A stretch of 35,087 nucleotides of DNA, from UHGV virus genome UHGV-0145327, one strand, 5' to 3'. This document shows positions 1-34,009 of this stretch, piece after piece. The notes below the pieces were generated by a model. The model was given only the letters and a program-made list of their open reading frames with translations, made no database searches and was not told the DNA's origin. How positions within the stretch are numbered: the stretch's first letter is position 1; each line of letters starts with the position of its first letter. This DNA is from a virus. A program made the translations under genes and the position numbers.

Positions 1-694
1 TATCCTGCGTCCAGGCGTTGTACCACGGTGTATCTGTAATTTTAAATAACTCTCCTTGGATAAAATCTTCAGAAGCATAAAAAAGAGGCTGACCCGGTAT
101 TCTCTCAAATAAAAAACGAGCATTTTTAAATCGACTGACATCTGGAAGAGTTGATACTTTAAAAGTAAGCCCTCGCCCATCTATCTTTTCACCACCTGTT
201 GCAACAGAAAGTAATTCTGATAGAGCTGATGTATCATCATGAACACCATCACCAATAGCCCCCCAACCTCTTACATCATAACTGTCTCTCCATCTTGCTA
301 TCTGAAGTTTTGGGTATTTATTCGCTCCATCTGGGTCTTCTAATTGCTGTCGTAACTGATCAGGATCATACTTCAGCACATTCGGAAAATAGAACTGCTG
401 CACACCATACGCATCATAAACAGCCATAGAATGGCCTTGCACAGTTACGAACTTGGCAATCTGCCCGTTATATACCGGATATCCGGCAGCGTTAATGATG
501 ATTGGTTGCGAAACAGGAACGTGAGAGCCGTCTTCATTCTCTACATAAACCTGAATCTGGTTTTCTGGATTTACCGGGTCAGTGTCAATTTTACCGATAT
601 AAATTTTGCCATTGGCTACGGCTTTAAAAGAACGCGCCATAGTGAAGAGTTGCGATGGCATTGATACGATCACATTGGCTGTAATGTCTGTCAT
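1..694 (-). CDS. Tailspike protein, N-terminal portion only (gene continues past the left edge of the window)
   Basis: Minus-strand ORF starting at ATG 694..692, not in the ORF track because it has no stop in the window. My translation begins [59 protein letters not shown]..., which matches the P22 gp9 head-binding domain as I remember it. After roughly residue 115 the sequence no longer resembles P22 gp9. Confidence 0.85.
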
Positions 695-751
695 TTAATT
701 TGCTCCAGATACAAGGAATCACCGCAGCATGGCTACGGCAATGCGTCATAG

Positions 752-766
752 AGACCACAGTGGTCT
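752..766. promoter_or_regulatory. Perfect 15-bp palindrome AGACCACAGTGGTCT, candidate Mnt operator between the divergent mnt and tailspike genes
   Basis: Seen directly: AGACCAC-A-GTGGTCT is its own reverse complement. It sits 64 bp upstream of the mnt ATG and 58 bp upstream of the tailspike ATG. It shares the CCAC-N-GTGG core with the P22 mnt operator as I recall it. Confidence 0.5.
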
Positions 767-829
767 TATTGTGGATATAACCAGTAGATCATATGATGCC
801 GATCCACTTACAAAAGTGAGGCATCAAGA

Positions 830-1081
830 ATGGGAAGAGATGACCCGCAATTTAATCTGCGGCTACCTTACGAATTAAAGGAAAAACTAAAACAGCGAGC
901 CAAATCCAATGGCCGCTCTCTTAATTCAGAATTAGTTCAGATAGTGACTGATGCTGTATCAAAGCCATCCAAAATTTCAGGCTATCGAGACGATGCGGAA
1001 CGCATCGCTGATGAGCAGTCTGAACTTGTTAAGAAGATGGTGTTTGATACGCTGAAGGATTTGTACAAAAAACCCACCTGA
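830..1081 (+). CDS. mnt: Mnt-family ribbon-helix-helix repressor (83 aa)
   Basis: Translation MGRDDPQFNLRLPYELKEKLKQRAKSNGRSLNSELVQIVTDAVSKPSKISGYRDDAERIADEQSELVKKMVFDTLKDLYKKPT is co-linear with P22 Mnt as I remember it, including the C-terminal ...DAERLADEQSELVKKMVFDTLKDLYKK segment. Confidence 0.9.
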   Translation: MGRDDPQFNLRLPYELKEKLKQRAKSNGRSLNSELVQIVTDAVSKPSKISGYRDDAERIADEQSELVKKMVFDTLKDLYKKPT

Positions 1082-1090
1082 CGGTGGGTT
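1071..1090. terminator. Hairpin AACCCACC-tgac-GGTGGGTT between convergent mnt (+) and the 322-aa gene (-); likely bidirectional terminator
   Basis: 8-bp perfect stem with a 4-nt loop that contains the mnt stop codon; A-run upstream and T-rich sequence downstream on the plus strand. Confidence 0.45.
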
Positions 1091-1096
1091 TCATAA

Positions 1097-2065
1097 TTAG
1101 ATTTCTGGTTTCATTCTTCCGAAAACCTTTTCTATTCCTTTTTCGTATTCTTCTCTTGTCTCACTCATCGCTGCGACACCAAGAAGCTTACCGATATGCT
1201 GACGCAAAGCCTTGACACCAATTTCAGAAAGGAACAGATGCAACTTATCAGATTGTTTTCCGTTCTCGTCTCGGCTGGCTCTAATTTGTTCAAGGATTTT
1301 ACCTTTACTCTTTGCTAGCGGGGTGTATATCTGCATGTTGGTTAGCTGCCCAAAACGAATAGGCCGTCCTTTCTCTGGCCTATTCAGGCCGTACAGTCGA
1401 TACCACTCCTCGTATAGCTCATCTGGAAATTCCTTTTCATATTGACGAGCCTCTTCACGAACAAACGCTTTGAACTCGTCAATGACAGCCTGAACTTCTG
1501 GACGATAACCAGCAAGCGCATACGCAACCCCCTTAATTCCCGCCTTAGCGGAGGCATTAATAAGTCTCTGTGCTGCGGCGGCTGCCTTTAACCGTGATTG
1601 TGGTAGATCGTCATTATCTTTGGCTTCTATTAGTGCCCTACCAATATCAACAATTGCTGTAATGTCATAACCTAACGCTTGATGAACGGTTTTAGACTTC
1701 GAAGTAAGTTGAAATTTATAGGGATTTTCCATTTTTCGCTGCAATTCTAGATCTCGGTATTTGCTCATATACTGAGCGCCAAGCAGTTGATCTAAATCCC
1801 TGGCATGTTCACCAATCCCTAGCAACTGAGATAATCCAGTTTTCGTAACAACGACAGTTTTCGACTCGTCATCCAGTACATAACATTCAGCATCAATGCC
1901 AAAATCATCTAAAAAGTTACCACGATGAGTTGCCCTGAGAATCTTACTTTTCCATCTTGCAGCAGCTGCTTTCTTTGCTATTTCAGAACGCTGCTCTTTA
2001 GTCAGCGACTTTGCGCGAGCGATCCCGCCCTTAGCTTTCCCTTCGCCACTTTTCTTTTCAGTCAT
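1097..2065 (-). CDS. Hypothetical protein, 322 aa, lysine/arginine-rich N-terminus, no family recognised
   Basis: Long minus-strand ORF. I place the start at ATG 2065 (MTEKKSGEGKAKGG...), which has an AAGGTG Shine-Dalgarno about 9 nt upstream; the upstream extension in the ORF track (MLVCVYSV...) has no ribosome-binding site. No catalytic motif recognised. Confidence 0.6.
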   Translation of the reverse strand: MTEKKSGEGKAKGGIARAKSLTKEQRSEIAKKAAAARWKSKILRATHRGNFLDDFGIDAECYVLDDESKTVVVTKTGLSQLLGIGEHARDLDQLLGAQYMSKYRDLELQRKMENPYKFQLTSKSKTVHQALGYDITAIVDIGRALIEAKDNDDLPQSRLKAAAAAQRLINASAKAGIKGVAYALAGYRPEVQAVIDEFKAFVREEARQYEKEFPDELYEEWYRLYGLNRPEKGRPIRFGQLTNMQIYTPLAKSKGKILEQIRASRDENGKQSDKLHLFLSEIGVKALRQHIGKLLGVAAMSETREEYEKGIEKVFGRMKPEI

Positions 2066-2160
2066 AATGCAAGCACCTTTGCTGTGATGTATGCTTGCAT
2101 TATATACACTGTACACACATACAAGCAAGCATAAAGCTAAAACAAAATGCTTGCATTACA
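2066..2160. promoter_or_regulatory. Divergent intergenic region with repeated ATGCTTGCAT / ATGCAAGCA motifs (candidate operator sites)
   Basis: ATGCAAGCA at 2067-2075 (inverted copy), ATGCTTGCAT at 2091-2100, CAAGCAAGCAT at 2122-2132, ATGCTTGCAT at 2147-2156, all between the start codons of two divergent genes. Confidence 0.4.
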
Positions 2161-2221
2161 ACCGCGCTACTCCAACTACACATTATCATCTGGTATCCTG
2201 CTCAAAACTAAGGAGGTTGGC

Positions 2222-2611
2222 GTGAAGCAATTTCTTACCGCTATGTTCTTATTCATATCTTTTGGGGCTACAGCAGAGTGCTGGGTCGTTGGAGATATGC
2301 GCGGAATAAGCTATTCAGAACGAAATAATTTCCATCCGGAAGAAGATGGTTTTAGTGGAACATTCATCATTAAGACAAACGGTGAAGATGCCAGCATCAC
2401 ATATTCTGGGACAGATGCGGGCGGCATGGCTTACAAAGCATTGTCTAAAAACTCCATCATAGGAATCGGCGCGAATGGCGAAACTCAACGCGTTATCGAC
2501 TCATGGGTAATACATCCTACTGGAACAGTTTTAATGTCAAAAACCATTTCCGGTTATGGAAATATGGATTCAACCAAAGCTTTTGTTGGAAAAGTAAAAA
2601 GAAAATGTTAG
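2222..2611 (+). CDS. Hypothetical secreted or periplasmic protein (about 129 aa) with an N-terminal signal peptide
   Basis: AGGAGG at 2211-2216 followed by in-frame GTG at 2222. Hydrophobic N-terminus VKQFLTAMFLFISFGATAEC; mature part has Cys near both ends. Plus-strand gene sitting inside a minus-strand late region. Confidence 0.6.
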   Translation: MKQFLTAMFLFISFGATAECWVVGDMRGISYSERNNFHPEEDGFSGTFIIKTNGEDASITYSGTDAGGMAYKALSKNSIIGIGANGETQRVIDSWVIHPTGTVLMSKTISGYGNMDSTKAFVGKVKRKC

Positions 2612-14313: not shown

Positions 14314-15794
14314 GGTATGTTGTAGCTTGAGTAATCAATCTCTTTAGGATCTTTGATGTCTCGCATCTGTATTGCAAAACGCCTCATCATGTAGCCATAG
14401 CGAACAGCAGAAAGGATGTCGTCATTTAGCTTGACGATCTTCCCGTTCTCATCGCGGTGATACAGGCGAAACTCTTCAAAGAATGGCTCGCAGGTGTTAA
14501 ATACCTTGAAACGACCGTCGAGCATCATGTCGCGTATCTCTGCTATCCCGGGTTCGACCGCATTACCTCCATCAGGCCATGTTGCATGATCTGGCAACAT
14601 GTCGAACCCAGCGTCGGCGTATTGTTCCTTGAGCTGAGCGCCGCCTCCCTTTTCGTGCTGATGCCCGTCATGAGGCCAAGCCGTAGGGGTGTTTTTGCTC
14701 CATGCTTTAACAGCACTCCATGCCTCTGTCGCCTTCTTCTGTTTGGCCTTCCAGACGCGAGAAAGATAAATCACGTCCTCGTCTTTATCCCACCAAAGCT
14801 GGATATGTGCCTGTGGGTGATCCCATCCGAAGTCCATTGCATTGATGACGTAGAAGTGATCAGGACACTCGAACGGCTGACACTTAATCGTCTCTTCCGG
14901 TATCTGGAAGATTCGACCACTACCCATCGTAGGAATACCGCGAGTACGCGCCTCTCTCTCATGCTCAGGATAGGATGCGATGATTTGCTCTTTCTGCTCG
15001 TCGGTATAGTGCTCAGCGTCATAGATGGTCATGTTGACCACTTTCTGCGACTTGCTGGGATTCTTCAGGAACTTGGTAACAACGTCAGACATCCCCATCA
15101 GCGGGGTAAACGTCAGAATTGAGAATTGCCCGTATTTGTTGGTACGGGTAAGACCTTCGCCATAAATGCTGTATGGTGGCTCTTCGTCAAACCACACGCC
15201 GTGGATTGTGTCACCCTGCCAGCGAGCACGGCCTTGCGAGTATGGTTTGAAGTAGCAGATTGAAATGCCATCTTCAACGCCATCAGCCGTGTGATGCTTA
15301 ACCAGAAGGTGATCAACAAGGTTCGGAAAGAAAGGAGACTTCTTCCAGCTAATGATGTCTTCTTTCGGTATGGAACCGTAGCCTGGCTCGTCATTCTCTT
15401 CGATACGACCGCACAGGATGCGTTGAGTCGTTTTGGTTACCGTCTCGTTTGTCTCGCCGCCAATCCAGAAGACAACAGGCTCATAGAAACGCTTACCTTT
15501 CCACTCACCGCCATATTTACCATCAGCAGGATAGCCTTTTGTGCCCGGATAACGCCCGGTAAGGTGAAACGCGACTTCAGCAGCACCAGTAAATGACTTA
15601 CCAAGCTGGTTACCAGCCATAAAACATCGCTCTGGATAGTCATGCCCGGCGTCGATGAACTCACGCTGTTTGCTGTATGGCGTAAATTCATATAGCAGGT
15701 GTGTGTTCCGGTAGTTTTCTTCTTCTTCGAGTAGCTCGAGCAATTCGATTTGCTCTTCGTCGCTCAGGTTATCAAGAATCGCGTCCAGTTCCAC
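14298..15794 (-). CDS. Terminase large subunit (498 aa)
   Basis: Length matches P22 gp2 (499 aa); lies between the small-subunit and portal genes with overlapping starts. Confidence 0.85.
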
Positions 15795-16296
15795 GGTTGA
15801 ATAGCTCCTTGATACGAGAGCGTCGCTTATCGCGATCTCCCTTATCAGGTGTCACGTCTTCAACTTGCGACTGCTCTTTGAGGCCCAAATCACGGGCGAT
15901 GATGTTAGCGTTGAGAAGGTCAGCGGCTGCGCCAGAGAATTTCTGGTCGTAGATGATGTCTTCCGCTCGTGATGTGACGTCAGAAAAACCTTCCATTGAC
16001 CGGAAGGTTCCCCATGTTTGCCTGGTGATATCAAGGAAGGTACACAATCCTGAAATAGTCATGGCTCGCATCTTAGGGACATTAGCCTTAATTATTTCTC
16101 CCTGATATGAAAATACCTTACCCTCCCATAGCGGGTTATCATCAGCCCACTCGAAGTATTCACAACAAGCAGCCCACAGCGCCTCAGGCGATTCGAATTT
16201 AGGATTTCGCCCATGACTACTGCGGGCCTCCCAAAATCGGTTGCCCTTTGGTGCTGCCATATGATTATTTCCCTTCTGCTTGCTTATCCCATTCAT
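15772..16296 (-). CDS. Terminase small subunit (start uncertain; MNGISK... or internal [11 protein letters not shown]...)
   Basis: Immediately upstream of and overlapping the large-subunit gene; size fits P22/Sf6-type small subunits. Confidence 0.75.
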
Positions 16297-16338
16297 CGCG
16301 GAATTTGGATGGGTTGTCGAAACCTTGAGTTGCCATGT

Positions 16339-18246: not shown

Positions 18247-18964
18247 GTCTTACCCCCAATAAGGGGATTTGCTCTATTTAATTAGGAATAAGGTCGATTA
18301 CTGATAGAACAAATCCAGGCTACTGTGTTTAGTAATCAGATTTGTTCGTGACCGATATGCACGGGCAAAACGGCAGGAGGTTGTTAGCGCAGCCTCTTGC
18401 CACCCGCTTTCACGAAGGTCATGTGTAGAAGGCCGCAGCATAACTATCACTGATGAATTCAGGATAGCCAGTGGCTACGGCTCAGTTTGGATTGTGGCGA
18501 CCGGTGCTGATCTCCGGTTTGCTGCAACTGCCTACAGCGGGCTACGTGGCCACACCGAATCCAGCGAAAGATTCTTGCCCTTACACATCAGCCTGTGCAT
18601 TCACCACAACTGAAAGAGCACTTGCGGAGTCGAACCGCCTTGGCTTCTAGAACTTTCGCATATAGCTAATCGCTAGTCTCCGTCACCAGTAATGCTCTTT
18701 CCGTTGTGTGCCCATTATTAATCACACCGGGCCAGTGCGCCGAATTTGTTTACAAGGAGTCGGAAGACCTTGCTGACTTACAGGCTATTACGCCGCCATC
18801 AGAACAACATCATCGTTTGCATTTATCTTTGTGGTCAGTTTCTAAAAAACCGCAAAGTCGCCAACTCTGACGAAAACTATCGTTGTGCTGCCACAACGAT
18901 AAGAGCACTCGGTGCATTTAAGCCAAGCCCCATAAGGGAGAATGCTCTTACCTGTTACACAGAT

Positions 18965-19024
18965 ATAAAAAATCCCGAAACCGTTATGCAGGCTCTAACT
19001 ATTACCTGCGAACTGTTTCGGGAT
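18965..19024 (-). terminator. tR'-like intrinsic terminator ending the short PR' transcript
   Basis: On the minus strand, CCCGAAAC...GTTTCGGG (with an inner GCAGG...CCTGC pairing) is followed by ATTTTTTAT. Confidence 0.6.
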
Positions 19025-19165
19025 TGCATTTTGCAGACCTCTCTGCCTGCAATGGTTGGAGTTCCAGACGATACGTCGAAGTGACCAACTAGGCGGAATC
19101 GGTAGTAAGCGCCGCCTCTTTTCATCTCACTACCACAACGAGCGAATTAACCCATCGTTGAGTCA

Positions 19166-19194
19166 AATTTACCCAATTTTATTCAATAAGTCAA
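19166..19194 (-). promoter_or_regulatory. Late promoter PR' (-35 TTGACT, 17-bp spacer, -10 TAAATT), with the Q-utilisation region expected to overlap it
   Basis: On the minus strand: TTGACTtattgaataaaattgggTAAATTtgactcaacgatggg, just downstream of the Q stop. Confidence 0.6.
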
Positions 19195-19236
19195 TATCAT
19201 GCCGTTAATATGTTGCCATCCGTGGCAATCATGCTG

Positions 19237-19860
19237 CTAACGTGTGACCGCATTCAAAATGTTGTCTGCGATTGACTCTTCTTTGTGGCATTGCACCACC
19301 AGAGCGTCATACAGCGGCTTAACAGTGCGTGACCAGGTGGGTTGAGTAAGGTTTGGGATTAGCATCGTTACAGCGCGATATGCGGCGCTTGCTGGCATTC
19401 TTGAATAGCCGACACCTTTGCATCTTCCGCATTCTTTCTCAACAACTCTCCCCCACAGTTCTGTTTTGGCTATATCAACCGCCCGACCTGTACCGTGGCA
19501 ATCTCTGCATCTTGCGCCCGGCGTCGCGGCACTACGGCAATAATCAGCATAAGCGAATGTTGCGAGCACTTGCAGTACCTTTGCCTTAGTATTTCCTTCA
19601 AGCTTTGCAACGCAACGGTATTTCCCCGATACCTTGTGTGCAAATTGCATCAGATAGTTGATGGCTTTTTGTTTGTCATTCTGGCTGAGTTCGTGCTTAC
19701 CACAGAACGCAGCCATTCCAAATCCGGCTTGTGATTGCGCCATCCCCATAGCAGCCATCACATCAGTACCGGAAAGAGAGTCAGAAGCCGTAGCCCGTGG
19801 TGAGTCGCTCATCATCGGGCTTTTTGGCGAATGAAATTTAGCCACGCTTTCGAGTCTCAT
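19237..19860 (-). CDS. Q: Late-gene antiterminator Q (207 aa)
   Basis: [82 protein letters not shown]... is near-identical to lambda Q as recalled. Confidence 0.95.
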
Positions 19861-20522
19861 GCGCCTTCTCCCTGTACTTGAATCAATGTGAGGTTTCCGC
19901 AGAACACTGCGCCGGTATCGATATACATCTGGTTGGCAAACTTGAGTGGTTTCACTGCTGGCGTATGACCAAAGATGAACGTGTCCGCGCCTTTGATTTC
20001 TTTCACGATCCCGTCTTGTGAGTTGCTGATTCGTTCGCGGTTCCAGATTACCTGCTGATGATCAACTGGCTTTCCAAACTCGTATTCGTCACAAGGATAA
20101 TCGGCGTGGCAGATGACATATTTTTTATCTTTGCTCACCAGTTCGATGATTAACGGAAGTTCATCTGCTTTATGGGCAAGAGCTTTAGCCAGAATTTCTT
20201 TGTCGTAATCGAGATTAAAGAACCAGCCACCGCCATTAAGCAGCCAGTGATTGACGTTTCCACGCTCTGATAAGCCATCAATCATCATTTGCTCATGGTT
20301 TCCACGTACAGCTCTGAACCAGGGGGATGTGATTAATTCCAGGCATTCGACGTTCTCTGTACCGCGATCAACCAAATCGCCCACCGAGATAAGCAGGTCT
20401 TTTTTGGTGTCGAATCCTATCGTCTCCAGTTTTTTCATCAGGTTCGTGTAGCATCCGTGCAGATCGCCAACTACCCAAATATTTCGGTATTTGCTGCCAT
20501 CAATTCTTTCGTAATAGCGCAT
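19857..20522 (-). CDS. Ser/Thr protein phosphatase, lambda NinI-like (221 aa from [12 protein letters not shown])
   Basis: GDLHG and GNHE metallophosphatase motifs ([25 protein letters not shown]); matches the lambda phosphatase as recalled. Confidence 0.9.
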
Positions 20523-20706
20523 CTCTTTCACTCCATCCGCGATGAACCATAAGAACGTCGTTGACGATGGCGTGCATTTTCCCGTCTTTATCATCAACGT
20601 ATTTTCTGACCGTGCCGCGACTACATTTCAGTCTGCGTGCTACTTCTGTCTGGTTTCCGTATGCTTCAACGAGCATGTCTGGAATGGTTTTTACTGAGAA
20701 CGTCAT
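20500..20706 (-). CDS. ninH: NinH (68 aa)
   Basis: [51 protein letters not shown]... is lambda NinH-like. Confidence 0.85.
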
Positions 20707-21305
20707 GCGGCCTCACTTCTGCTGTTTCGCAGGTCTTTGAGTTTCTGCTGATACTCCGCCTTGATGGCCCTGCACTCTTCGACAGTCCAGCGATGGCGGT
20801 TATGGTTTGATTCGATTTCGTCTACTGCTTCCTGCCCGATGCGGCTAATCAGTTCGACGCGATACGGAACGAGATTCCCGCTTTTGTGCTGGTTGCACAC
20901 CACGCATTGCTTGTGAATATTGCGTTCATCAAATCGGAGTTGAGGCGCCGCAGCAGTTGTCCGGTAATGCCCGGCATCCCACTGAGCAGACGTGAGCGTT
21001 CCGCACGAGATACATGGTAAGTCGCGGTCTCTTTCTCTGATGAAGGCGTTTACAGCTTGTTGGGCTTGTTTAATCCAGTAACTGCGGGGCTTTAAGGCGA
21101 GTTTTCGAATCTTAAGTTTATCTTTCTGTTTCTGCTCCTCTCGTCGTCGTTTCTTCTCTGCTGCCTTTTCCGCTTTTTCGCGTTCTTTGCTTCGTCGTTC
21201 GAGTGCTATCTTGGTTCCACAAATCTCATTACACCAATATTGATTTTGATATTTTGGTATAAACCATTCATTGCAACATTTACATTTCCTTCGATAGATT
21301 CGCAT
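20703..21305 (-). CDS. ninG: NinG/Rap recombination protein, restarted at an internal Met (about 200 aa)
   Basis: ...[81 protein letters not shown]... matches lambda NinG as recalled; ATG at 21305 ([15 protein letters not shown]). Confidence 0.85.
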
Positions 21306-21846
21306 AAGTGCTCCTTTCGTTGCCGGAAAAATCACCGTAATACTTATCTCGGGCTTCTTCAGCAACTAGTACCGCTAACTCCAGATCATCAAAGCATCCG
21401 AAGTGTTTACTCTTGCCATGGAAACCTAGCCTAACATTCCATTTTTTCTGTCGTTTGTGCCAAGTAACTCCTCTGCAACCTGATTTGCTATTCTTTCGGA
21501 TCCTTATATTTCTTGAATTTTCTATTGGCAGGCATTCTCTTAAATTTTCTGGCCTATTGTCGGTCCTAATTCCATTAACGTGGTCAATTTGACCAGCAGG
21601 CCAACGATTATGAGTTATGTAAAAAACTAAGACGTGAGTTTTATATCTACGCCCATCTATCATGATCATTGAATAACCGTTGGAATCAAAAGTTCCAGCA
21701 ACACTATTTAATGCTATCCTTCCCTGAGTGGGAACTTTCCATCTAAATACCCCGGTAGATTTATCGAAACTTAGTAACTCAAATATCCTTTTAACAGTTA
21801 AATCTTCTCTTTTACGGTTACATCGTCTTCGCGCTGGTTTAGCCAT
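21280..21846 (-). CDS. HNH homing-type endonuclease with an AP2-like DNA-binding domain (188 aa)
   Basis: HNH core [15 protein letters not shown]; N-terminal ...[17 protein letters not shown]...; AP2-like ...[50 protein letters not shown]. Gene is visibly AT-rich against GC-richer flanks. Confidence 0.8.
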
Positions 21847-22009
21847 TGTCTTCTTCCTCGTGCATCGAACTATTCGGATCGCTCATCAGTTCTGCGCAGC
21901 AGTGCTCACACACGTGAACTTCCAGCACATGCAACTTCTGACCGCAGTTAGCGCACGTTAAAGCCCGCTCGACGCTTTCTTGTTCGTAACTTCGATTTGG
22001 GTCAATCAC
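21839..22009 (-). CDS. ninF: NinF (56 aa, GTG start), not in the ORF track
   Basis: My translation [56 protein letters not shown] matches lambda NinF as recalled; GTGA overlap with the ninE stop. Confidence 0.75.
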
Positions 22010-22188
22010 CTTGTTTTCCTCGCACGTTCTCTAAGCCACCGGATATCCCACAGGTGAGCCGTGTAATTGAAGGTTTTTACGTCAGATTCTTTTGGGATTG
22101 GCTTGCGTTTATTTCTGGAGCGTTTCGTTGGAAGGTATTTGCAGTTTTCGCAGATTATGTCGGTGATACTTCGTCGCTGTCGCCTCAT
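22006..22188 (-). CDS. ninE: NinE (60 aa from [10 protein letters not shown])
   Basis: [60 protein letters not shown]; ATGA overlap with the upstream methyltransferase stop. Confidence 0.75.
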
Positions 22189-22712
22189 GCCGCCCTCCTG
22201 ACGCCCTGCCCGATCGCCATCAATGCCGCTTTGGATACGGTAGTAAACATCCGTCGAGGACTGATGAACGGTCGCCAAATCAGCAGCATGGAACCTTTGC
22301 TGTTTCCCTTCTTCTCCAACCCAGTCGATGGTTCGATAAAATTAATCCGTCCATCAGTGATGATGCGAACTTCGTCAACACTCTCCAGAGCCTTACTGAA
22401 CCATCCTACAGACATATCCTCTGGCACAAGCATCACTACCGTCTGTCGCTGTTGTATGCACTGCTCAGCGGCTTTTTCCACCCACGGCCTGATATTGCTG
22501 TACGGTGGGTTATTCCAGATTGCACCGTGGCTTACCCACTCAGAATTGAGCGCGTCGTCGGCCTCAGTTAACCAGTGAGCGCACAGAGCATTTTTGTCGC
22601 TCGCTGCCGAATCCAGCCAGAATCCAAACTCAATATCCAGTGCATCAAAAAGCCAAAGCGGCGTTTGCCAGCAGTCCTTGTCGTGTGCTGGCGTATTTGA
22701 TTTGATAGTCAT
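22185..22712 (-). CDS. Phage DNA N6-adenine methyltransferase (about 175 aa from [13 protein letters not shown])
   Basis: NPPY catalytic motif ([14 protein letters not shown]) and the [14 protein letters not shown]-terminal region typical of the phage N6A methyltransferase family; ATGA overlap with the ninB stop. Confidence 0.8.
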
Positions 22713-23149
22713 GCAGCCCGATCTCCCCATCGCGCTTTCCATTCGAGAGCCAGTCGCGCTTCGTCTGACCACTTAACGCCACGCTCTGTACCGAATGCCT
22801 GTATAAGCTCTAATAGCTCCGCAAATTCGCTTACACGCATCCTGCTGGTTGACTGGCCTATTACAACAAAGCCATTCCCGGCAAGGTTAGGAACAACGTC
22901 CTGCTGCTTTAATGCTGCTGTAAAAACGCACTTCCAGCTTTCTGCATCCAGCCGGCGACCATGCCATTCAACCTGACGCGAAACGTCACCAAGGCAAGCC
23001 CAAAGCTTCCGATTTTGGTCTAAGCTGCGGTTGCGCTCCTGAATGGTTACTACTATTGGTTTGGTTGGGTCTGGAAGGATTTGCTGTACTGCGTGAATAG
23101 CGTTTTGCTGATGTGCTGGAGATCGAATTTCAAAGGTTAGTTTTTTCAT
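22709..23149 (-). CDS. ninB: NinB recombination protein (146 aa)
   Basis: MKKLTFEIRSPAHQQNAIHAVQQILPDPTKPIVVTIQERNRSLDQNRKLWACLGDVSRQVEWHG... is near-identical to lambda NinB as recalled. Confidence 0.9.
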   Translation of the reverse strand: MKKLTFEIRSPAHQQNAIHAVQQILPDPTKPIVVTIQERNRSLDQNRKLWACLGDVSRQVEWHGRRLDAESWKCVFTAALKQQDVVPNLAGNGFVVIGQSTSRMRVSEFAELLELIQAFGTERGVKWSDEARLALEWKARWGDRAA

Positions 23150-26444: not shown

Positions 26445-26669
26445 TTATGCTGCCTGATTCGGTTTTGGAAACAGGTGTGGCAAATCGGGGCGAATTTCGT
26501 AAGCCTTGATCTGCCCTCCAGTGGCGTTAACGATGGCGGTAACTTTCTCTGGAGAGACCAACCCGCCTTTCAGCCATTTGTGTACTGCTGGCTGCGTTAC
26601 ACCACACTTGTCGGCAAGGCGCTTTTGGCTACCGACAATTTTCAAGGCTCGTTGAATTACTAAATTCAT
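26445..26669 (-). CDS. cro: Cro-like HTH repressor (74 aa from MNLVIQRALK)
   Basis: Small HTH protein (QKRLADKCGVTQPAVHKWLKG) transcribed divergently from cI; AAGAGG Shine-Dalgarno 7 nt before the MNLV ATG. Confidence 0.75.
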   Translation of the reverse strand: MNLVIQRALKIVGSQKRLADKCGVTQPAVHKWLKGGLVSPEKVTAIVNATGGQIKAYEIRPDLPHLFPKPNQAA

Positions 26670-26705
26670 GAGCATACCTCTTGTGGTCATTACTTATAAC
26701 CAAAG

Positions 26706-26768
26706 ATAACTCAAGTTATAAAAAATAGCAATAACCTTTGTTATTTTACTTTGGATAACCGTAGTTAT
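26706..26768. promoter_or_regulatory. OR operator cluster: three ATAAC-N4-GTTAT sites between cro and cI (PR/PRM region)
   Basis: ATAACtcaaGTTAT (26706-26719), ATAACctttGTTAT (26731-26744), ATAACcgtaGTTAT (26755-26768). Confidence 0.6.
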
Positions 26769-26780
26769 AGATTTGTGGGT

Positions 26781-27488
26781 ATGAAAACATTCGCAGAAAG
26801 ACTAAATGCAGCCATGAGCTCAGCAGGGGTATCACAATCACAGCTTGCTGACATGGTTGGAATATCTCAGCCAGCCATACAGAAGATGTCGTCCGGTAAA
26901 ACAAACGGATCTCGCAAGATGGTTGAATTAGCCAATGCTTTAAAAGTGCGCCCTGAATGGCTTAGTTCTGGTATTGGTGAAATGAGGGATGGTGCACATG
27001 AAGAACCATCCAATGTCCGTGAGTCATCTTTAAAAGCTGTGGTATGGGAAGACATTAAAAGAAACGATGACGAGTTTGTTGCGTTGCCTCTTCTTAACGT
27101 TTCGCTTTCAGCTGGAAGCGGTAGCTGCGAGCTAGAGGAATCATCGGAGTTCTCTTTGGTTTTCAGAAAGCACTATCTGAAAAAGATGGGAGTATCTGAA
27201 AGATCAGCCAAGCTAGTTAGGGTTGTAGGGCAAAGCATGGAACCAACGCTTCACGATGGCGATGTTGTTGGTGTTAACACGCAAGATACCACCATCAGAG
27301 ATGGTAAAACCTACGCTATTTGCCAGTCTGATTTGTTACGAGTAAAAACATTAATCGCCACCCCTACATCGGTGATAATCAGATCAATAAATCGCGAAGA
27401 GTACCCGGATGAAGTAATGGATAGAGATGAATTTCATGAAACCGTAAGGATTATTGGCAGAGTATTCTGGTCGTCTCATAGTTGGTAA
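26781..27488 (+). CDS. cI: CI-type prophage repressor with HTH and LexA-like S24 autocleavage domain (235 aa from MKTFAERL)
   Basis: HTH QSQLADMVGISQPAIQKM; C-terminal S24 motifs (VVGQSMEPTLHDGDVV Ser, downstream Lys). ATG 26751 is an alternative start but would overlap the third operator. Confidence 0.85.
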   Translation: MKTFAERLNAAMSSAGVSQSQLADMVGISQPAIQKMSSGKTNGSRKMVELANALKVRPEWLSSGIGEMRDGAHEEPSNVRESSLKAVVWEDIKRNDDEFVALPLLNVSLSAGSGSCELEESSEFSLVFRKHYLKKMGVSERSAKLVRVVGQSMEPTLHDGDVVGVNTQDTTIRDGKTYAICQSDLLRVKTLIATPTSVIIRSINREEYPDEVMDRDEFHETVRIIGRVFWSSHSW

Positions 27489-27528
27489 CCGATAATCAGA
27501 AGAAGACTTACGGAAGTGCGGAGGGATA

Positions 27529-27825
27529 ATGGAATTTCTGATAGTTTTTGTTGTTGTTTTGGTCATCATTCTTTTTGTTTTGCTAAGCATTAGTAAAAAG
27601 CTATCTCAAGTGATTGAACATAGCTCTAATCGCGCAAAAGAAGAAGAGCATCTAATTGATATAAAAGAGATTCTCTCTGATATAAAAATCACATTAGATG
27701 AAATAAAATACACAACAGATCTAATTGAACAGTATAAAATACCAACCCCAAACGAGAGAAAAGCAATAGATCAATATCGTATTGACTTAGAAATCGACGA
27801 AATGCTAAGCAAAAGAAAAGACTAA
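27529..27825 (+). CDS. Small membrane-anchored hypothetical protein (98 aa) in the rexAB position, very AT-rich
   Basis: Directly downstream of cI on the same strand; N-terminal hydrophobic segment MEFLIVFVVVLVIILFVLLSI followed by a charged, helix-prone region; followed by an intrinsic terminator. Confidence 0.6.
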   Translation: MEFLIVFVVVLVIILFVLLSISKKLSQVIEHSSNRAKEEEHLIDIKEILSDIKITLDEIKYTTDLIEQYKIPTPNERKAIDQYRIDLEIDEMLSKRKD

Positions 27826-27830
27826 AAACA

Positions 27831-27858
27831 CCCGGCCTCAGCGCCGGGTTTTCTTTTC
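27831..27858 (+). terminator. Intrinsic terminator ending the cI/rex-slot operon
   Basis: CCCGGC-ctcagc-GCCGGG followed by TTTTCTTTTCC, 5 bp after the stop codon. Confidence 0.65.
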
Positions 27859-27978
27859 CTGCCGTTCACCACCCAATCACCCATCATCATCATAGACAAG
27901 CATCAAGCCAAAGGTAACACCTTCACCCCGCACGCAAGCCCTCAAACACCAATCAATCAGCAACATTTACAAAAATAA

Positions 27979-28064
27979 AATACCTTTGTTATCCATCACT
28001 TATAACTTATTTACCACAAAATATAAATTAGGTTATTGACCACACCTATAACCTAAGTTATCTT
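27979..28064. promoter_or_regulatory. OL/PL region: operator-like sites of the same ATAAC-N4-GTTAT family and a candidate PL (-35 TTGACC at 28036-28041)
   Basis: ATAACctaaGTTAT at 28048-28061 is a full site; ATACCtttgTTAT near 27980-27992 is a degenerate copy; TTGACC with TATCTT 17 bp downstream, pointing toward N. Confidence 0.5.
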
Positions 28065-28110
28065 TAAGCCATCAGCAGGGCGCTGGTAGCCAAACGGAAC
28101 AGATTGGCAG

Positions 28111-28151
28111 GCTCTTTAACATTGATGGGATTGTCCCGCCGAAATGCGGGA
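28111..28151 (+). promoter_or_regulatory. nutL: boxA (GCTCTTTAA) and boxB hairpin (TCCCGC-cgaaat-GCGGGA) upstream of N
   Basis: boxA at 28111-28119; boxB at 28134-28151 has the identical sequence to the boxB found in nutR. Confidence 0.6.
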
Positions 28152-28258
28152 ACCAAAGAGTAGTTGGCTTTGGGGTGGCGTGAAGTGCAGCTGCACGACG
28201 GCAACCGGAAGATAAGCACCCGGCGCGTCACCGCCAAAGTCAATCATCGGAGGTCAAC

Positions 28259-28531
28259 ATGACAGTAGTCATTACATATCTGGCTGACGATAACGCCAGA
28301 AATCGCCGCAGAGCACGCAGACAGGCTCAACGTGAACAGGCAATGCAAGAGCAGCGACTGGCGCGAAAAATTGCGCTAAAGCTCTCTGGTTGCGTCAGAG
28401 CAGATAAAGCAGCATCACTCGGAAGCCTTCGCTGCAAGAAGGCAGATGAATGCAGTGGAAGTATTTGCCTGCCAAACGTAGCCATTTACGCGGCAGGCTA
28501 CCGGAAATCAAAACAACTGACGGCGAGATGA
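28259..28531 (+). CDS. N: N-type transcription antiterminator (90 aa; P22 gp24-like)
   Basis: Arginine-rich motif DNARNRRRARRQAQREQ near the N-terminus; C-terminal LPNVAIYAAGYRKSKQLTAR matches the P22 gp24 C-terminus (LPGVALYAAGHRKSKQITAR) as recalled. Confidence 0.85.
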   Translation: MTVVITYLADDNARNRRRARRQAQREQAMQEQRLARKIALKLSGCVRADKAASLGSLRCKKADECSGSICLPNVAIYAAGYRKSKQLTAR

Positions 28532-28547
28532 TAAATTAATTTGCTAA

Positions 28548-29129
28548 TTACTTGTTTTTGCCATGCTTATACTGAGCGATAAGTTCATCCATAAGACTGT
28601 CTTTCTTCCCAGCAAACCTAATGTAGCACTCATTTCTATAGCGTTCCGGGATAACAAAACGGTCGATTTCAGGATATCCAGTAGCAGAAGGTACCCGAAT
28701 AAGAAGCCCTTTTTCGAGCAATGAGATTGCTTCAGGGCTTCCCTTTTCTGTCTTTAGCTGGTTATTAGCGGCTACAGCGAATGCCAAATACGCTCTTTCT
28801 CCAAGAGTTAACGAATCAAACAAATCTTGCACGTATTTCTCTTCTTTAGATTTGCGCTTCTGAGCAGCGAATATCTCAATTCTTTCAGTCACAGCGTGAT
28901 AAGCGGAATTAACAACGCCGTTAAGCACATAGCTAACGCAAAACAACAGGATGTAATACATCCAGTAATGAGGAAGGATTTCTGGATTATGCAGGTTTAT
29001 CCATTCTTTTACGCTTACAGGCATAACAATAATCAATATGATTAGGATGATTAGCATATGAATCAACTGTTTAAGTGTCATTCCTTGCAGGAAAAAATGC
29101 ATTAGTTCCTGCCACCATGAGTTGTTCAT
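28548..29129 (-). CDS. sieB: Superinfection exclusion protein SieB-like membrane protein (193 aa)
   Basis: Lies next to N on the opposite strand as sieB does in lambda; similar size (about 192 aa); N-terminal transmembrane segments (LIHMLIILIILIIVMPV, YWMYYILLFCVSYVL). Confidence 0.75.
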   Translation of the reverse strand: MNNSWWQELMHFFLQGMTLKQLIHMLIILIILIIVMPVSVKEWINLHNPEILPHYWMYYILLFCVSYVLNGVVNSAYHAVTERIEIFAAQKRKSKEEKYVQDLFDSLTLGERAYLAFAVAANNQLKTEKGSPEAISLLEKGLLIRVPSATGYPEIDRFVIPERYRNECYIRFAGKKDSLMDELIAQYKHGKNK

Positions 29130-29343
29130 CGGCGTTTCTCTTTTGCTCTCTGTAGGGGTGAATAGAGTTTATCCGATTTCTCGCTGTAGGGGTACACGAG
29201 AACCACCGAGCCTGATGTGGTTAAAAGACAGGCATACTAATAAACACTGCACTGTGTATTCATTCCAACGAGTGAATACACTGAGCAATGTCGCTCGTAA
29301 CTAAACAGGAGCCGACTTGTTCTGATTATTGGAAATCTTCTTT

Positions 29344-29369
29344 GCCCTCCAGTGTGAGGGCATTTTTTT
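29344..29369 (+). terminator. Intrinsic terminator in the PL operon (tL-like)
   Basis: GCCCTC-cagtgt-GAGGGC followed by ATTTTTTT. Confidence 0.6.
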
Positions 29370-29381
29370 GACGGAGAAAAT

Positions 29382-29693
29382 ATGAAATTACGTGTCTGGC
29401 ATATCCCGCAAGTACCTATGAAGCCGTTCATTGTAGAAGTGGCAAGTGTTGAAGAGGGTGTTCGCCTGATGGATGCACTGGCTGATTATGATGCCTTTCA
29501 GTATGACAACAATATCAAGCCTGACTACTGCAATGCTAACGGCCTTGAGATGTGGGATGAGAGCCTTATCGATGAAGATTTATCAGATATGGGGCTTACT
29601 GATCGCTGGGTGGATTGGTACAGCGAATGCCAATGTTACGACGACCCACGTAAATATCTCGAAAGCCTGAAAGAAGAAACATCAGCCGCCTAA
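29382..29693 (+). CDS. Hypothetical acidic protein (103 aa), first gene after sieB in the PL operon
   Basis: GGAGAAAAT-ATG start; Cys-containing acidic protein. Position corresponds to P22 gene 17 / lambda ral region, but I cannot confirm the family from sequence. Confidence 0.55.
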   Translation: MKLRVWHIPQVPMKPFIVEVASVEEGVRLMDALADYDAFQYDNNIKPDYCNANGLEMWDESLIDEDLSDMGLTDRWVDWYSECQCYDDPRKYLESLKEETSAA

Positions 29694-29768
29694 GCGCGGC
29701 TTTACCGCATACCAATAACGCTTCACTCGAGGCGTTTTCGTTATGCAATCAAACAGAAGGAGAATCCT

Positions 29769-29939
29769 ATGCAACAGTTCGCTATTGCAGGGGCGGCATC
29801 GGTTCGCCCTTTCAACCCGATTTTATCGGTACAGCATTCACGAAAAAATATTTTAACCGGAGCAGACTTTAAACAACCAAGAATGAAAAGTTTGCTCGAA
29901 AAGCTTTGGGATATTTTGAAACAACAAGGCCGTCCATGA
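29769..29939 (+). CDS. cIII: CIII-like FtsH inhibitor (56 aa), not in the ORF track
   Basis: My translation MQQFAIAGAASVRPFNPILSVQHSRKNILTGADFKQPRMKSLLEKLWDILKQQGRP resembles lambda CIII (MQYAIAG...SLLERITRKLRDGWKRLIDILNQPG); AAGGAG Shine-Dalgarno 7 nt upstream. Confidence 0.75.
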   Translation: MQQFAIAGAASVRPFNPILSVQHSRKNILTGADFKQPRMKSLLEKLWDILKQQGRP

Positions 29940-30020
29940 GTTTTACAGATAACTGGTCAGACGAAGAATTCATTCGTCAGATGAAAGAAATGCTCAATCA
30001 GCACAAAGAACAGGAGAAAG

Positions 30021-30332
30021 ATGATGATTCTGACTCTGAAAGATGAGCGTGAAATATCGCAAATAATCGCAAGTTTTACTGATGAAGATTACGAACGAAT
30101 CAACAGTGAAGTTGATCGCCTCTGCAAACGTTGCGACCCAATAAGCGAAATGCTTCGCTCATATAAACCAGATGAACACACTAAGGACGCTATCGACTGG
30201 CTGGAAGATTATGACTGTAACTATCAGGAAAAAGCCGCTGAATGGTTCTGGGATGCAATAACCGAAAGAGTTAAGGCTGAATATGCCTTCGCAATATTCA
30301 AACGCAGACACGTTTATGGAGAAGCAGCATGA
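30021..30332 (+). CDS. Hypothetical protein (103 aa)
   Basis: ORF translationally coupled to recT (stop overlaps the recT ATG); no family recognised. Confidence 0.5.
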   Translation: MMILTLKDEREISQIIASFTDEDYERINSEVDRLCKRCDPISEMLRSYKPDEHTKDAIDWLEDYDCNYQEKAAEWFWDAITERVKAEYAFAIFKRRHVYGEAA

Positions 30333-31240
30333 GCAATATCGTTGAATTCGTTAAACAGCAAGAGCAGTTATTCTGCGGAGCATTGACTGAACAGACGGTG
30401 ACATGGGCTAAGGAAAGCCAGTTTGCAATTCAGTATTTCCAGAAAAATGATTACCTGGCTAAAACAGCACTGGCAAATCCAACCAGCGCACAGAACGCCA
30501 TCATCAATGTTGCGGCGATCGGTATCACCTTAAACCCGGCTAGCAAACTGGCTTATCTGGTTCCGCGCGACGGCATGGTGTGCCTTGATATCAGTTATAT
30601 GGGATTGCTCCATATTGCAATGGAGTCTGGTGTTATCTCATGGGGTCAGGCAAAACTTGTTCATGCTAACGATACCTATGAGTCAAACGGGCTTGATAAA
30701 GCACCAACCCATAAATACAACGCCTTCGGTGATCGTGGTGATATTGTTGGCGTTTACTGCACAGTTAAGACGCCAGCAGGTGATTATCTAACGGAAGAGA
30801 TGAGTCTGGCTGAAATTGAAGCTGTAAGGAAAACAAGCAAGGCAGCATTCAGCGATAAAGGACCATGGGTAAATCACTGGAATGAGATGGCGCGAAAGAC
30901 GGTCGTAAAGCGTGCAAGCAAGTATTGGCCTAAGGCATCACGTCTTGATAGTGCTATTCACGTACTAAACGAAGAAGAAGGTGTGTGGACTGAACCAGTT
31001 ATGCCGCACAAATCAGAGGAAGATATCCGCGAAGATGAACGGAAACGACAGCAGGAAATTATGGAAAAAGCACAACTTCTTTGTGATGAAATGGCTCAGG
31101 CTGAAAACATGGATGATTTGAAGCGATATTTTGCAGAAGCATATCGCCTGACATCTGGAATGAAATTGCAGCAGAACGTACAAGCCATTTACATAGAATG
31201 CAAAGCGAAACTGGAGGTTGCCAGTGAGCAAACTGTATGA
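30329..31240 (+). CDS. recT: RecT-family single-strand annealing recombinase (303 aa)
   Basis: ...VRKTSKAAFSDKGPWVNHWNEMARKTVVKRASKYWP... aligns with the RecT signature region (...GPWVTHWEEMAKKTAIRRLFKYLP...). Confidence 0.85.
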   Translation: MSNIVEFVKQQEQLFCGALTEQTVTWAKESQFAIQYFQKNDYLAKTALANPTSAQNAIINVAAIGITLNPASKLAYLVPRDGMVCLDISYMGLLHIAMESGVISWGQAKLVHANDTYESNGLDKAPTHKYNAFGDRGDIVGVYCTVKTPAGDYLTEEMSLAEIEAVRKTSKAAFSDKGPWVNHWNEMARKTVVKRASKYWPKASRLDSAIHVLNEEEGVWTEPVMPHKSEEDIREDERKRQQEIMEKAQLLCDEMAQAENMDDLKRYFAEAYRLTSGMKLQQNVQAIYIECKAKLEVASEQTV

Positions 31241-31706
31241 AATTGCCAATGAATACGCAAAATTGATGGATTCAGATTTAGAGCCAGAGATGATTGCTGA
31301 CACAATAGAAGGCATGGAAGGAGAATTTACCGATAAAATAGAGCAACTTCTCGCCATTATTAAAAATGAATCTGGTTATGCTGAACGCCTCAAGGAAGAG
31401 GCAAAGTCACTAAATGAGAGAGCCGCAGTAATTCAAAATAAGATTGACAGCATTATGGCGTATATAGCGTCATCGCTTGAAATGGTTGGCAAGAAAAAGA
31501 TTCGAGCAGGTATTCACCAGGTAACAATTCGCAAACCGTCAGAAATTGTAGAAATAATCGACTCAAGCGCCCTTCCTCCTGAATACGTTGAGTTTGAAAC
31601 GACAATTAAAGCCGACAAACTGGCAATCAAACACCAACTAAAAGCAGGAATAAATATCCCCGGCGCTCAACTCAAAGTTGGGAAACCTTCACTTCTTATC
31701 AAATAA
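31224..31706 (+). CDS. Hypothetical protein immediately after recT (about 160 aa; possibly a Gp157-like recT-associated protein)
   Basis: GGAGG at 31213-31217 then GTG at 31224; coiled-coil-like sequence; family assignment is a guess from gene context. Confidence 0.5.
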   Translation: MSKLYEIANEYAKLMDSDLEPEMIADTIEGMEGEFTDKIEQLLAIIKNESGYAERLKEEAKSLNERAAVIQNKIDSIMAYIASSLEMVGKKKIRAGIHQVTIRKPSEIVEIIDSSALPPEYVEFETTIKADKLAIKHQLKAGINIPGAQLKVGKPSLLIK

Positions 31707-31717
31707 CGGTATCGCCT

Positions 31718-32032
31718 ATGAAAAAGACTCCATGGGAGAAATGGGAAGTCGATTTCTTGCGCGAAGTGGCGGCGACAATGCCAGTTGAAGTTATCGCTGA
31801 AAAACTGGAAAGGACTGAAAAAGCAGTAATGGCGAAAGCAACAAGGATTGGCGCTGACATTGTTAGCCGACTTCGTGGAAGACGATGGACAAGAGCCGAA
31901 GTATCACTTTTCGGTAAGTTCTCCGCAGAAGAAATAGCAATTGCAACCTGCCGCTCAATTTATTCAGTAAGGGCTATGCGATACAAGCTAAAAAAACTCG
32001 ATGAAGAAAGAGCAGGCATACGAATAAATTAA
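31718..32032 (+). CDS. Hypothetical protein (104 aa)
   Basis: Complete ORF in the co-oriented early-left gene array; basic, possibly DNA-binding. Confidence 0.5.
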   Translation: MKKTPWEKWEVDFLREVAATMPVEVIAEKLERTEKAVMAKATRIGADIVSRLRGRRWTRAEVSLFGKFSAEEIAIATCRSIYSVRAMRYKLKKLDEERAGIRIN

Positions 32033-32048
32033 CATGGAGTAATTAACA

Positions 32049-32330
32049 ATGAAGCTAAACATCGACCTCGGCAAATACGTTATTACTGGAACAAAACACG
32101 ACCTGATTCTTAATGAAAGAGGAATTATCAAAGAAGGTGAGAATGCAGGGAAAGAAACACTAAGCCGTATCGGTTATTACAGCAAGTTTGAGCATCTGGT
32201 TAAAGAATTATGCAACCGTGAAATCCTGTTATCTCAGGCGCAGACGCTACAGGATATTCAGCAGCATATCGAAACTTTAGGTATGTCACTTAGCATGGCT
32301 ATTGACCAGTTCGTGGAGAGTAAATCATGA
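32049..32330 (+). CDS. Hypothetical protein (93 aa)
   Basis: Complete ORF in the co-oriented early-left gene array. Confidence 0.5.
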
Positions 32331-32487
32331 GAGGTCTTGCATACAATCCCGGCATTCTTCCGGCAGAAATGATTATTCGCCAACGCGTAAAGCCAATGCC
32401 ATCGAGAGAGGAATTGCTTAAGAGAAATTCTTTTCCATCAGTGAATCAAAACAAATATCTGAATGCGATGTGGCGGGGTGGGAAGAA

Positions 32488-33117
32488 ATGAAACAAATGT
32501 CACTAATTGAGATGGATGGATTTCTGAAAGGTAAATGCATCCCACGAGATTTAAAGGTTAACGAAACAAACGCTGAATATCTGGTGCGTAAGTTCGGTGA
32601 AGCGGAGGCCAAGATTTCGGCTCTGTCCGAAGACCAGCAGAGAGCGATTGAGTCAATTAAGCAGGCTGATGCGGCTGTTAAGTTGGCACACGAGAAGTTT
32701 TCGGCGCTGGCGGCGGAGAATGAACTGGCTCGTAAGGCAGTTCAGGCATTCTGCGATGTTGTTGGCGACAACACCGAGGTTATCGCTGAGGTGGTTGGGA
32801 GAGATGGCGTTCTGGTTATTTTGGAGGCCATGAAGGCAACAGGAAATATGCCTGCCACCGATGCTTTCCTGTCTGAAATACGTGCGGAGGCACGCAACGA
32901 GGGGATTAACTACACCGCAAGCCGCCTTGCTGCTGCGTTCAATCACGGATTTATCAATAAGTCTTTACGTGAAGTTTTCGACGTTACACGCATGATTCTG
33001 TCAGCGAAAGAAGAGTTGGCTAATGAACCGCATCCGATTGATGGCCTGTCTGGTGAATATGCGGAGAAATCCCTTGAAGAATGGGCGGAACAGATTCGCA
33101 AAGGAGTTCAGTCATGA
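32488..33117 (+). CDS. Hypothetical protein (about 209 aa from [11 protein letters not shown])
   Basis: ATG at 32488 overlaps the stop of an upstream small ORF (ATGA); the 32470 start in the track is less likely. Confidence 0.5.
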
Positions 33118-33347
33118 GCATCCGAACTGAACATGGATTTGGTCCTTCAACGGTCGAAGTCGAATGGCTTGATGATTGCCCTAAGTGCCAGCACGGCAAA
33201 GCCAAGGTAACAGGATGGTCGGTAACCAAAGATTCTTTGTGGGCGGGTGATGAGGCCGTTTGTTCCAAATGCGGTCACAAAGGTGAAATCGATGCTGATG
33301 GAGAGAATGCCTGGGTGGAATGGGACGAAATCGAGGAGGCGCAATGA
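33114..33347 (+). CDS. Small zinc-ribbon-like protein (77 aa)
   Basis: Two Cys pairs (CPKC ... CSKC); ATGA start overlap with the upstream gene. Confidence 0.55.
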   Translation: MSIRTEHGFGPSTVEVEWLDDCPKCQHGKAKVTGWSVTKDSLWAGDEAVCSKCGHKGEIDADGENAWVEWDEIEEAQ

Positions 33348-34009
33348 GCAACATCGACATCGACACACTGGCGCTGCGTGAGGCGGCAGAACGTGCAATT
33401 CCGGCAATGGAACGCCTGTTAATGTTGCCAGTTGATGATGATCTGATAAGTGAACAGGAACTTAAAGATTACGGTGTGGATATTGATGCGCTCAACGCCT
33501 TCAAATTTCTGGCCGGACCAGAAACCGTGCTGGCGCTTCTGGATGAACGGGAAAGAAACCAGCAATACATAAAACGCCGCGATCAGGAGAACGAGGATAT
33601 TGCGCTAACGGTAGGGAAACTGCTAATCGAAAACGGCCGGCTTGTTGCCGATACGCTACGCCACTTAGCTGATAACGAAATCGACTCTGATTATTTTGCT
33701 ATCACCTCAACGAATGAGAACGGTACTGAAATTGATCATGAGATGGCTATTACCGATTACGCACTGCAAGCTGCCGGAACTGTAGACGAATTGGTTGCGG
33801 CGCTGGAATCCGCAGAGAAGCGCATAGCAGAACTGGAAGCGCGGGAAATACTGCTCCCGGAACGTAGCAGTATGCTTCATCGAACAGATTTTCACGATGA
33901 TTACCAAACGGTAATGGCATACAAAGTTTCTGAAGTCATCGCTGCAATCCGCGCCGCTGGCATTCGCATCAAAGGAGGCGCAGGAGAACAAAACGATGAA
34001 AAACCGTAA
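33344..34009 (+). CDS. Ead/Ea22-like early-region protein (221 aa)
   Basis: N-terminus MSNIDIDTLALREAAERA resembles the conserved N-terminus of Ead/Ea22-like phage proteins (..ALREAAEKA..); ATGA overlap with the upstream gene. Confidence 0.6.
   Translation: MSNIDIDTLALREAAERAIPAMERLLMLPVDDDLISEQELKDYGVDIDALNAFKFLAGPETVLALLDERERNQQYIKRRDQENEDIALTVGKLLIENGRLVADTLRHLADNEIDSDYFAITSTNENGTEIDHEMAITDYALQAAGTVDELVAALESAEKRIAELEAREILLPERSSMLHRTDFHDDYQTVMAYKVSEVIAAIRAAGIRIKGGAGEQNDEKP

Follow-up and report, generated by a model that had tools for sequence, protein, structure and literature searches.

The window analysed here (the whole stretch of DNA, 35,087 nucleotides) carries on its minus strand, in this order, genes for the terminase, portal, scaffold, coat, gp4, gp10, gp26, gp14, gp7, gp20 and gp16, followed by a P63C/Mnt region and a tailspike gene, an order that is collinear with that of P22 and CUS-3. 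The other genes of the window include a lysis cassette, a Q-like antiterminator, nin genes, a helicase, a CI-like repressor, an N-like protein and SieB. The window represents a genome of the P22-like type (Lederbergvirus), in which scans with Rfam and for tRNA genes found no families and no tRNA. The tailspike gene follows the ejection proteins and the immI region and lies last in the late operon, which is where a P22-like tailspike is found.

The gene starts with an ATG at window position 694 and its frame is open to base 1, giving 231 codons with no stop. Since the frame reaches base 1 and the full-length relatives have 981 amino acids, the gene is cut by the edge of the window, which holds its first 24% (231 of 981 codons); the truncation had been recognised in the original prediction, and the peptide quoted there corresponds to residues 127-181 of the product. 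The GGAG Shine-Dalgarno sequence is found 8 nt upstream of the ATG. Some short ORFs (41-77 amino acids) lie on the plus strand inside positions 1-694, antisense to the tailspike gene, and were treated as chance ORFs. Using megablast, the 694-nt fragment could be aligned along its whole length (100%) with siaK1 of phage CUS-3 at 97.1% nucleotide identity, and phage vB_EcoP-720R6 obtained an equal score. At the protein level 227 of the 231 residues are identical to CUS-3, 229 to the prophage spike of E. coli G749 and 228 to that of elppa4. The features of the gene and of the region upstream are given in the table.

Table. Features of the tailspike gene fragment and its upstream region (window coordinates).
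Feature	Position	Strand	Basis
5' part of CUS-3-type endosialidase tailspike gene (231/~981 codons)	1..694	-	Open frame, match to CUS-3 siaK1
Start of the catalytic beta-propeller (19 residues, aa 213-231)	2..58	-	Pfam PF12217, identity to CUS-3, G749 and K1F
Endosialidase N-terminal extension domain (aa 146-212)	59..259	-	Pfam PF12218, identity to K1F, PDB
Linker/neck module (aa 114-145), with the junction to the head-binding domain at its upstream end	260..355	-	Ends of alignments, identity to K1F
Head-binding (particle-attachment) domain (aa 1-113)	356..694	-	Pfam PF09008, PDB matches, identities
44-nt leader with GGAG (703-706), travelling with the tailspike gene	695..738	-	Identity to CUS-3 and G749
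Terminator-like hairpin and T-run behind the upstream P63C gene, placed as t-ant is in P22	1064..1092	-	RNAfold

The head-binding segment is covered by the full profile (1-113 of 113) of the Pfam family Head_binding, with 223 bits against a cut-off of 24 (E=6.3e-67). Its identity in segment blastp was 76.1% to P22, 92.0% to Sf6, 95.6% to HK620 and 98.2% to both CUS-3 and the G749 prophage, and no real match was obtained to the K1F endosialidase endoNF. Among solved structures, P22 gp9 aligns over residues 1-117 (E=2.5e-51, with P22 gp9 structures overall at 1e-45 to 1e-51) and Sf6 gp14 over residues 1-118 (E=2e-66), and the isolated P22 head-binding domain 1LKT is among the PDB matches of residues 1-113. 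The N-terminal domain of ~110 amino acids homologous to the head-binding domain of P22 gp9, by which P22-like tailspikes are recognised, is in this way present, as had been predicted for the first ~115 residues.

The similarity to the receptor-binding domains of P22, Sf6 and HK620 is lost after residue ~113-117. The junction is located just after a YDPDQ motif, and megablast alignments to HK620, Sf6, IME10 and N7 end at gene nt 339-347. When residues 114-231 were compared by blastp with full-length P22 gp9, Sf6 gp14 and HK620 gp9, only chance matches of 10-17 residues were returned (E>=0.2), and therefore the break after residue ~113-117 is real and far beyond chance. Identity of the P22 type does not continue through the fragment, residues 114-231 being without a meaningful match to P22 gp9, and the statement that the sequence ceases to resemble the P22 receptor-binding domain at about residue 115 was borne out. 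In NCTC8623 the upstream region and the head-binding domain are shared with the window and the divergence starts from nt 340, the gene there encoding a 642-aa spike that lies beside a gtr-type glycosyltransferase.

The linker that follows the junction is 56% identical to residues 214-245 of K1F endoNF. Taken in its wider limits (245-355 on the minus strand; aa 114 to ~150) it is a mosaic module of its own. It is common to the non-endosialidase P22-like tailspike of phage Gally, which is 91% identical over residues 1-159 and then unrelated, and in which no endosialidase Pfam domains were found. It is also present in a solved 843-aa tail spike (PDB 9vvr_A, residues 214-259). Occurring in Gally, 9vvr_A and K1F, the linker thus joins at least two adaptor types to several types of receptor-binding domain.

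Beyond the linker, residues 146-212 match the complete profile (1-67 of 67) of the Pfam family End_N_terminal, described as 'N-terminal extension of bacteriophage endosialidase' (E=1.7e-37, 127 bits, cut-off 26.3), and are 61% identical to residues 246-312 of K1F endoNF. The last residues of the fragment correspond to profile positions 1-19 of 367 of the family End_beta_propel with 23.5 bits, a score that stays just under the cut-off of 24 because only 19 residues of the propeller are inside the window; all 19 are identical in CUS-3 and G749 and 17 of the 19 in K1F (313-331). Searched against solved structures, residues 145-231 matched the K1F endosialidase entries 3GVJ/K/L and 1V0E with E ~1e-34 and 4HIZ with E=4e-31. 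Over the whole of residues 114-231 the identity is 100% to G749, 98.3% to CUS-3 and 64.4% to residues 214-331 of K1F endoNF (E=2e-53). The record of CUS-3 siaK1 describes an 'endosialidase tailspike protein' with endo-alpha-sialidase activity under the evidence code IDA (direct assay), citing PMID 16689790. The original prediction had considered the receptor specificity to be unknown; an identity of 98-100% to CUS-3-type endosialidases and of 64% to the crystallised K1F enzyme points instead to the alpha-2,8-polysialic acid K1 capsule as the likely target.

The full-length relatives give an indication of what is expected further downstream. The spikes of G749 and CUS-3, both of 981 amino acids, carry the Pfam domains End_beta_propel, End_beta_barrel, End_tail_spike and Peptidase_S74, with the propeller at 213-662, the barrel inside it at 324-406, the stalk at 663-817 and the Peptidase_S74 chaperone from 818 onwards. 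In these relatives, which are 99-100% identical, the beta-propeller domain reaches 775 bits. The residue aligned to K1F Ser911, reportedly the cleavage site (Schwarzer/Schulz et al.), is kept in G749 and CUS-3, and so are K1F H350, E581, R596 and R647, as H250, E488, R503 and R554. A deep mutational scan of the K1F spike found these four K1F residues to be catalytic and intolerant to substitution, and endosialidases are described as combining a sialidase domain, built as a six-bladed beta-propeller into which a beta-barrel is inserted, with a stalk and a C-terminal chaperone domain that is cleaved (PMC12632334). In the present copy the catalytic residues, the stalk and the chaperone domain are all beyond codon 231 and so out of view, because only 231 of ~981 codons are inside the window.

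Upstream of the tailspike gene, the leader is identical to CUS-3 at 42 of 44 positions and to G749 at all 44. The similarity to CUS-3 stops at window position 738, 44 nt before the ATG, and beyond this point only 5 of 22 positions are identical. This end of the leader falls inside a sequence annotated in CUS-3 as 'bsq1 boundary sequence'.

A gene of the Mnt/Arc family (830-1081, plus strand; Pfam Arc and Repressor_Mnt) is divergent to the tailspike gene, the intergenic region being 695-829. A perfect 15-bp palindrome, AGACCACAGTGGTCT, is found at 752-766 between the two genes, beside a promoter-like site facing mnt (TTGTGG-17nt-TATGAT, 769-797). The palindrome and the promoter-like site resemble the P22 mnt operator arrangement, except that here the tailspike gene, and not arc-ant, is on the other side.

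The hairpin listed in the table consists, on the minus strand, of a GC-rich stem of 10 bp with TTTTTTG after it, and has a folding energy of -16.2 kcal/mol (RNAfold); on both strands it folds at -14 to -16 kcal/mol. It sits between the convergent ends of the Mnt and P63C genes, with an A-run on its other side. A scan for consensus terminators did not list this hairpin. In P22 a terminator separates ant from gene 9, and the hairpin is a terminator-like site ahead of the tailspike gene that would have a corresponding function. In the slot of the antirepressor Ant of P22 and CUS-3 the window has a gene for a 343-aa P63C-domain protein (1097-2128, minus strand; PHROG 2384, function unknown), and G749, elppa4 and NCTC8623 are arranged in the same way. 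A further ORF of 154 amino acids (2147-2611, plus strand), antisense to the late operon, occupies the place of sieA in P22, with the gp16-like ejection gene on one side and the P63C gene on the other. Its product has a signal-peptide-like hydrophobic stretch (MFLFISFGATA) and belongs to PHROG 2651, of unknown function; no Pfam match was found for it. It may be a moron or an exclusion gene.

We consider it highly probable that positions 1-694 of the minus strand are the first quarter of a tailspike gene of the CUS-3 (siaK1) type, in a temperate E. coli K1 phage or prophage that is P22-like (Lederbergvirus). This reading is carried by the domains in the fragment, by its being nearly identical to CUS-3-type genes, by where the junction lies and by the phage context. 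The remaining ~750 codons are probably intact, as judged from the sequence of the relatives, and by analogy with CUS-3 and K1F, for which endosialidase activity has been demonstrated, the present copy would be expected to be active. The gene might also begin as a CUS-3-type endosialidase and be degraded or recombined downstream (a pseudogene, a truncated spike or a second swap), leaving no working K1 spike. The window ends at codon 231, the prophage is a mosaic different from CUS-3 and P22-like prophages are sometimes defective, as illustrated by the pseudogenised ejection gene of the NCTC8623 prophage. However, over the 349 nt that follow the junction the window has an identity of 100% to elppa4 and of 99.2-99.6% to CUS-3 and G749, whose three genes are all intact at 981 amino acids, and every virion gene of the window looks like a long intact ORF, so that we find such a loss of the spike very unlikely.

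The original prediction had seen in the gene a chimeric tailspike in which a domain swap changes the O-antigen specificity. The chimera stands, with a swapped receptor-binding part; the change of O-antigen specificity does not, since the target would pass from the O-antigen to the capsule. A beta-helix tailspike of new O-antigen specificity would agree with the conserved N-terminal domain and the abrupt loss of similarity to P22, Sf6 and HK620, which is the pattern of O-antigen spike swaps, and a weak Pect-lyase-like match was indeed obtained at residues 141-163 (E=0.065). This match to a pectate-lyase-type beta-helix, explained by a common 'GAxGDGVxDDT' motif, is below threshold (13.5 bits against a cut-off of 27) and was rejected, as it is overridden by the endosialidase families. 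For residues 146-231 the matches are to Pfam families specific for endosialidases and to crystal structures of endoNF, the full-length relatives have a beta-propeller architecture in place of the beta-helix that had been expected, and the fragment is nearly identical to CUS-3 siaK1; we give an O-antigen-specific beta-helix next to no probability. Set beside HK620, Sf6 and CUS-3, the gene proved to be of the CUS-3 type itself, with HK620 and Sf6 unlike it after the junction. We also hold it to be very unlikely that the unseen three quarters of the gene differ from CUS-3, for instance through another swap beyond the N-terminal extension domain, by which the substrate preference would be altered (e.g. 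towards O-acetylated polysialic acid), or, as a separate matter, that the linker (aa 114-150) is a dedicated recombination cassette for the exchange of receptor-binding domains of several kinds between P22- and T7-type adaptors.

Following the reading as a CUS-3-type endosialidase spike, residues 1-113 would plug the trimeric spike onto the tail hub (virion structures of P22 and Sf6 are among the PDB matches) and residues 114-145 would form a short linker between this domain and the enzyme. From residue 146 on, the product would be a GH58-type endosialidase (endo-N-acetylneuraminidase), beginning with the N-terminal extension domain and continuing with a six-bladed beta-propeller that has a beta-barrel inserted in it, then with a stalk and, at the C-terminus, with a self-cleaving intramolecular chaperone domain; everything after the first 19 propeller residues would be beyond the window. 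By analogy with the known enzymes, the spike would cut the polysialic acid K1 capsule, allowing the virion to reach the outer membrane and restricting the host range to K1 strains. Its transcription would presumably come from the antiterminated late operon, reading through the hairpin as is the case of the terminator before P22 gene 9.

The DNA that corresponds to window 1-345 was found at an identity of at least 99% in 183 genomes altogether, among them 148 of the 5,426 complete E. coli genomes, and the matches always fall in a 'phage tailspike protein'. These genomes include O7:K1 CE10 and the O2:K1:H5 strains APEC E19035 and IMT5155. When the CUS-3-type spikes are compared with the window, the identity is 92.9-95.3% (4.7-7% divergence) for the head-binding DNA (nt 1-339), whereas the linker stretch (nt 340-450) is 98.2-100% and nt 451-694 are 99.2-100% identical, linker and endosialidase DNA together being 0-1.1% diverged. 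Since the head-binding DNA is the more diverged, one endosialidase allele sits on several head-binding alleles, which suggests recent crossovers at gene nt ~340-345 that would have placed this allele onto different head-binding alleles.

The chimera of a P22 head-binding domain and an endosialidase is real but ordinary, as it has already been described; the swap of these domains was reportedly published by Stummeyer et al. in 2006. The fusion is a textbook case of tailspike module exchange (Stummeyer et al. 2006; review PMC5380687), present in ~3% of complete E. coli genomes. For annotation its value is that the spike would mark the window as a K1-capsule-specific, CUS-3-like temperate phage. 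CUS-3-like phages normally carry the phase-variable capsule O-acetyltransferase gene neuO just downstream of the spike, and CUS-3 and neuO are tied to K1 strains, neuO being present in 43.5% of 8,659 K1 genomes and in 88% of ST95; neuO bears on the virulence and the phage resistance of ExPEC K1 strains (PMC13001214; PMC3046976), and its expected position is outside the window. The heptanucleotide repeat of neuO and the CUS-3 att core are absent from the window, as is to be expected because both sit beyond its ends. In G749 and elppa4 an acyltransferase gene in the neuO position follows the spike, and then an integrase gene; the order in G749 is spike, acyltransferase, intS and tRNA-Arg, as in CUS-3.

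Only 49% of the window can be aligned with CUS-3 DNA. A search of 50,697 phage records and 5,426 complete E. coli genomes gave no close match to the window as a whole. In the best E. coli genome 84% of the first 12 kb is matched at 98.2% identity, and the best coverage by a phage record is 63% (phage JEP4). The window therefore represents a distinct mosaic phage with the same CUS-3-type spike, and not CUS-3 itself. The blocks with no DNA similarity to CUS-3 are 14336-16332, 18516-22709 and 26453-35087, and they include a different terminase and a 245-aa CI-like repressor. The nin region, also dissimilar to CUS-3, has an HNH endonuclease (21280-21846) and a NinI-like phosphatase (19857-20597), and a DNA methyltransferase (22185-22772) is among the dissimilar modules. 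Genes for RecT-like and Gam-like recombination proteins (30329-31706) are found in place of Erf.

With P22 gp9, Sf6 gp14 and HK620 gp9 the spike of the window has the head-binding domain in common, and all are encoded where the late operon finishes, past the ejection genes and the immI region. For binding the receptor these three have right-handed beta-helix O-antigen endoglycosidases, and the window spike is unlike them after residue ~117. The endoNF of K1F, a lytic T7-like phage (gp17; PDB 1V0E, 3GVJ/K/L), is homologous to the tailspike from the linker onward, with a domain order shared by the full-length CUS-3-type relatives, and attaches to the particle by an N-terminal domain of the T7 gp17 type (Pfam Phage_T7_tail), not by a P22 head-binding domain.

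In phage CUS-3 itself, SiaK1 (ABQ88383.1 / CAJ29292.1; Stummeyer et al. 2006, PMID 16689790) has the same architecture, junction and gene position as the window spike and differs from it by four amino acids (P43T, V98A, P121T and A207V); its head-binding DNA is 95.3% and its endosialidase DNA 99% identical. The N-terminal domain has been described as common to CUS-3, HK620, Sf6 and P22, and CUS-3's catalytic domain as a K1-specific endosialidase shared with K1F (PMC5380687, citing Stummeyer et al. 2006). The window differs from CUS-3 in having a P63C protein in place of Ant and one Mnt gene instead of two, and in its terminase, nin, immunity and recombination modules. The closest overall are the CUS-3-like prophage spikes of E. 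coli G749 and elppa4 (WP_061157932.1 and WP_228587230.1), which have the same order of P63C, Arc-Mnt and tailspike genes and 98.7-98.9% nucleotide identity over window 1-2200. The remainder of these two prophages matches the window only in part; in their spikes, residues 114-231 are 100% identical and the 2-3 amino acid differences are all in the head-binding domain.
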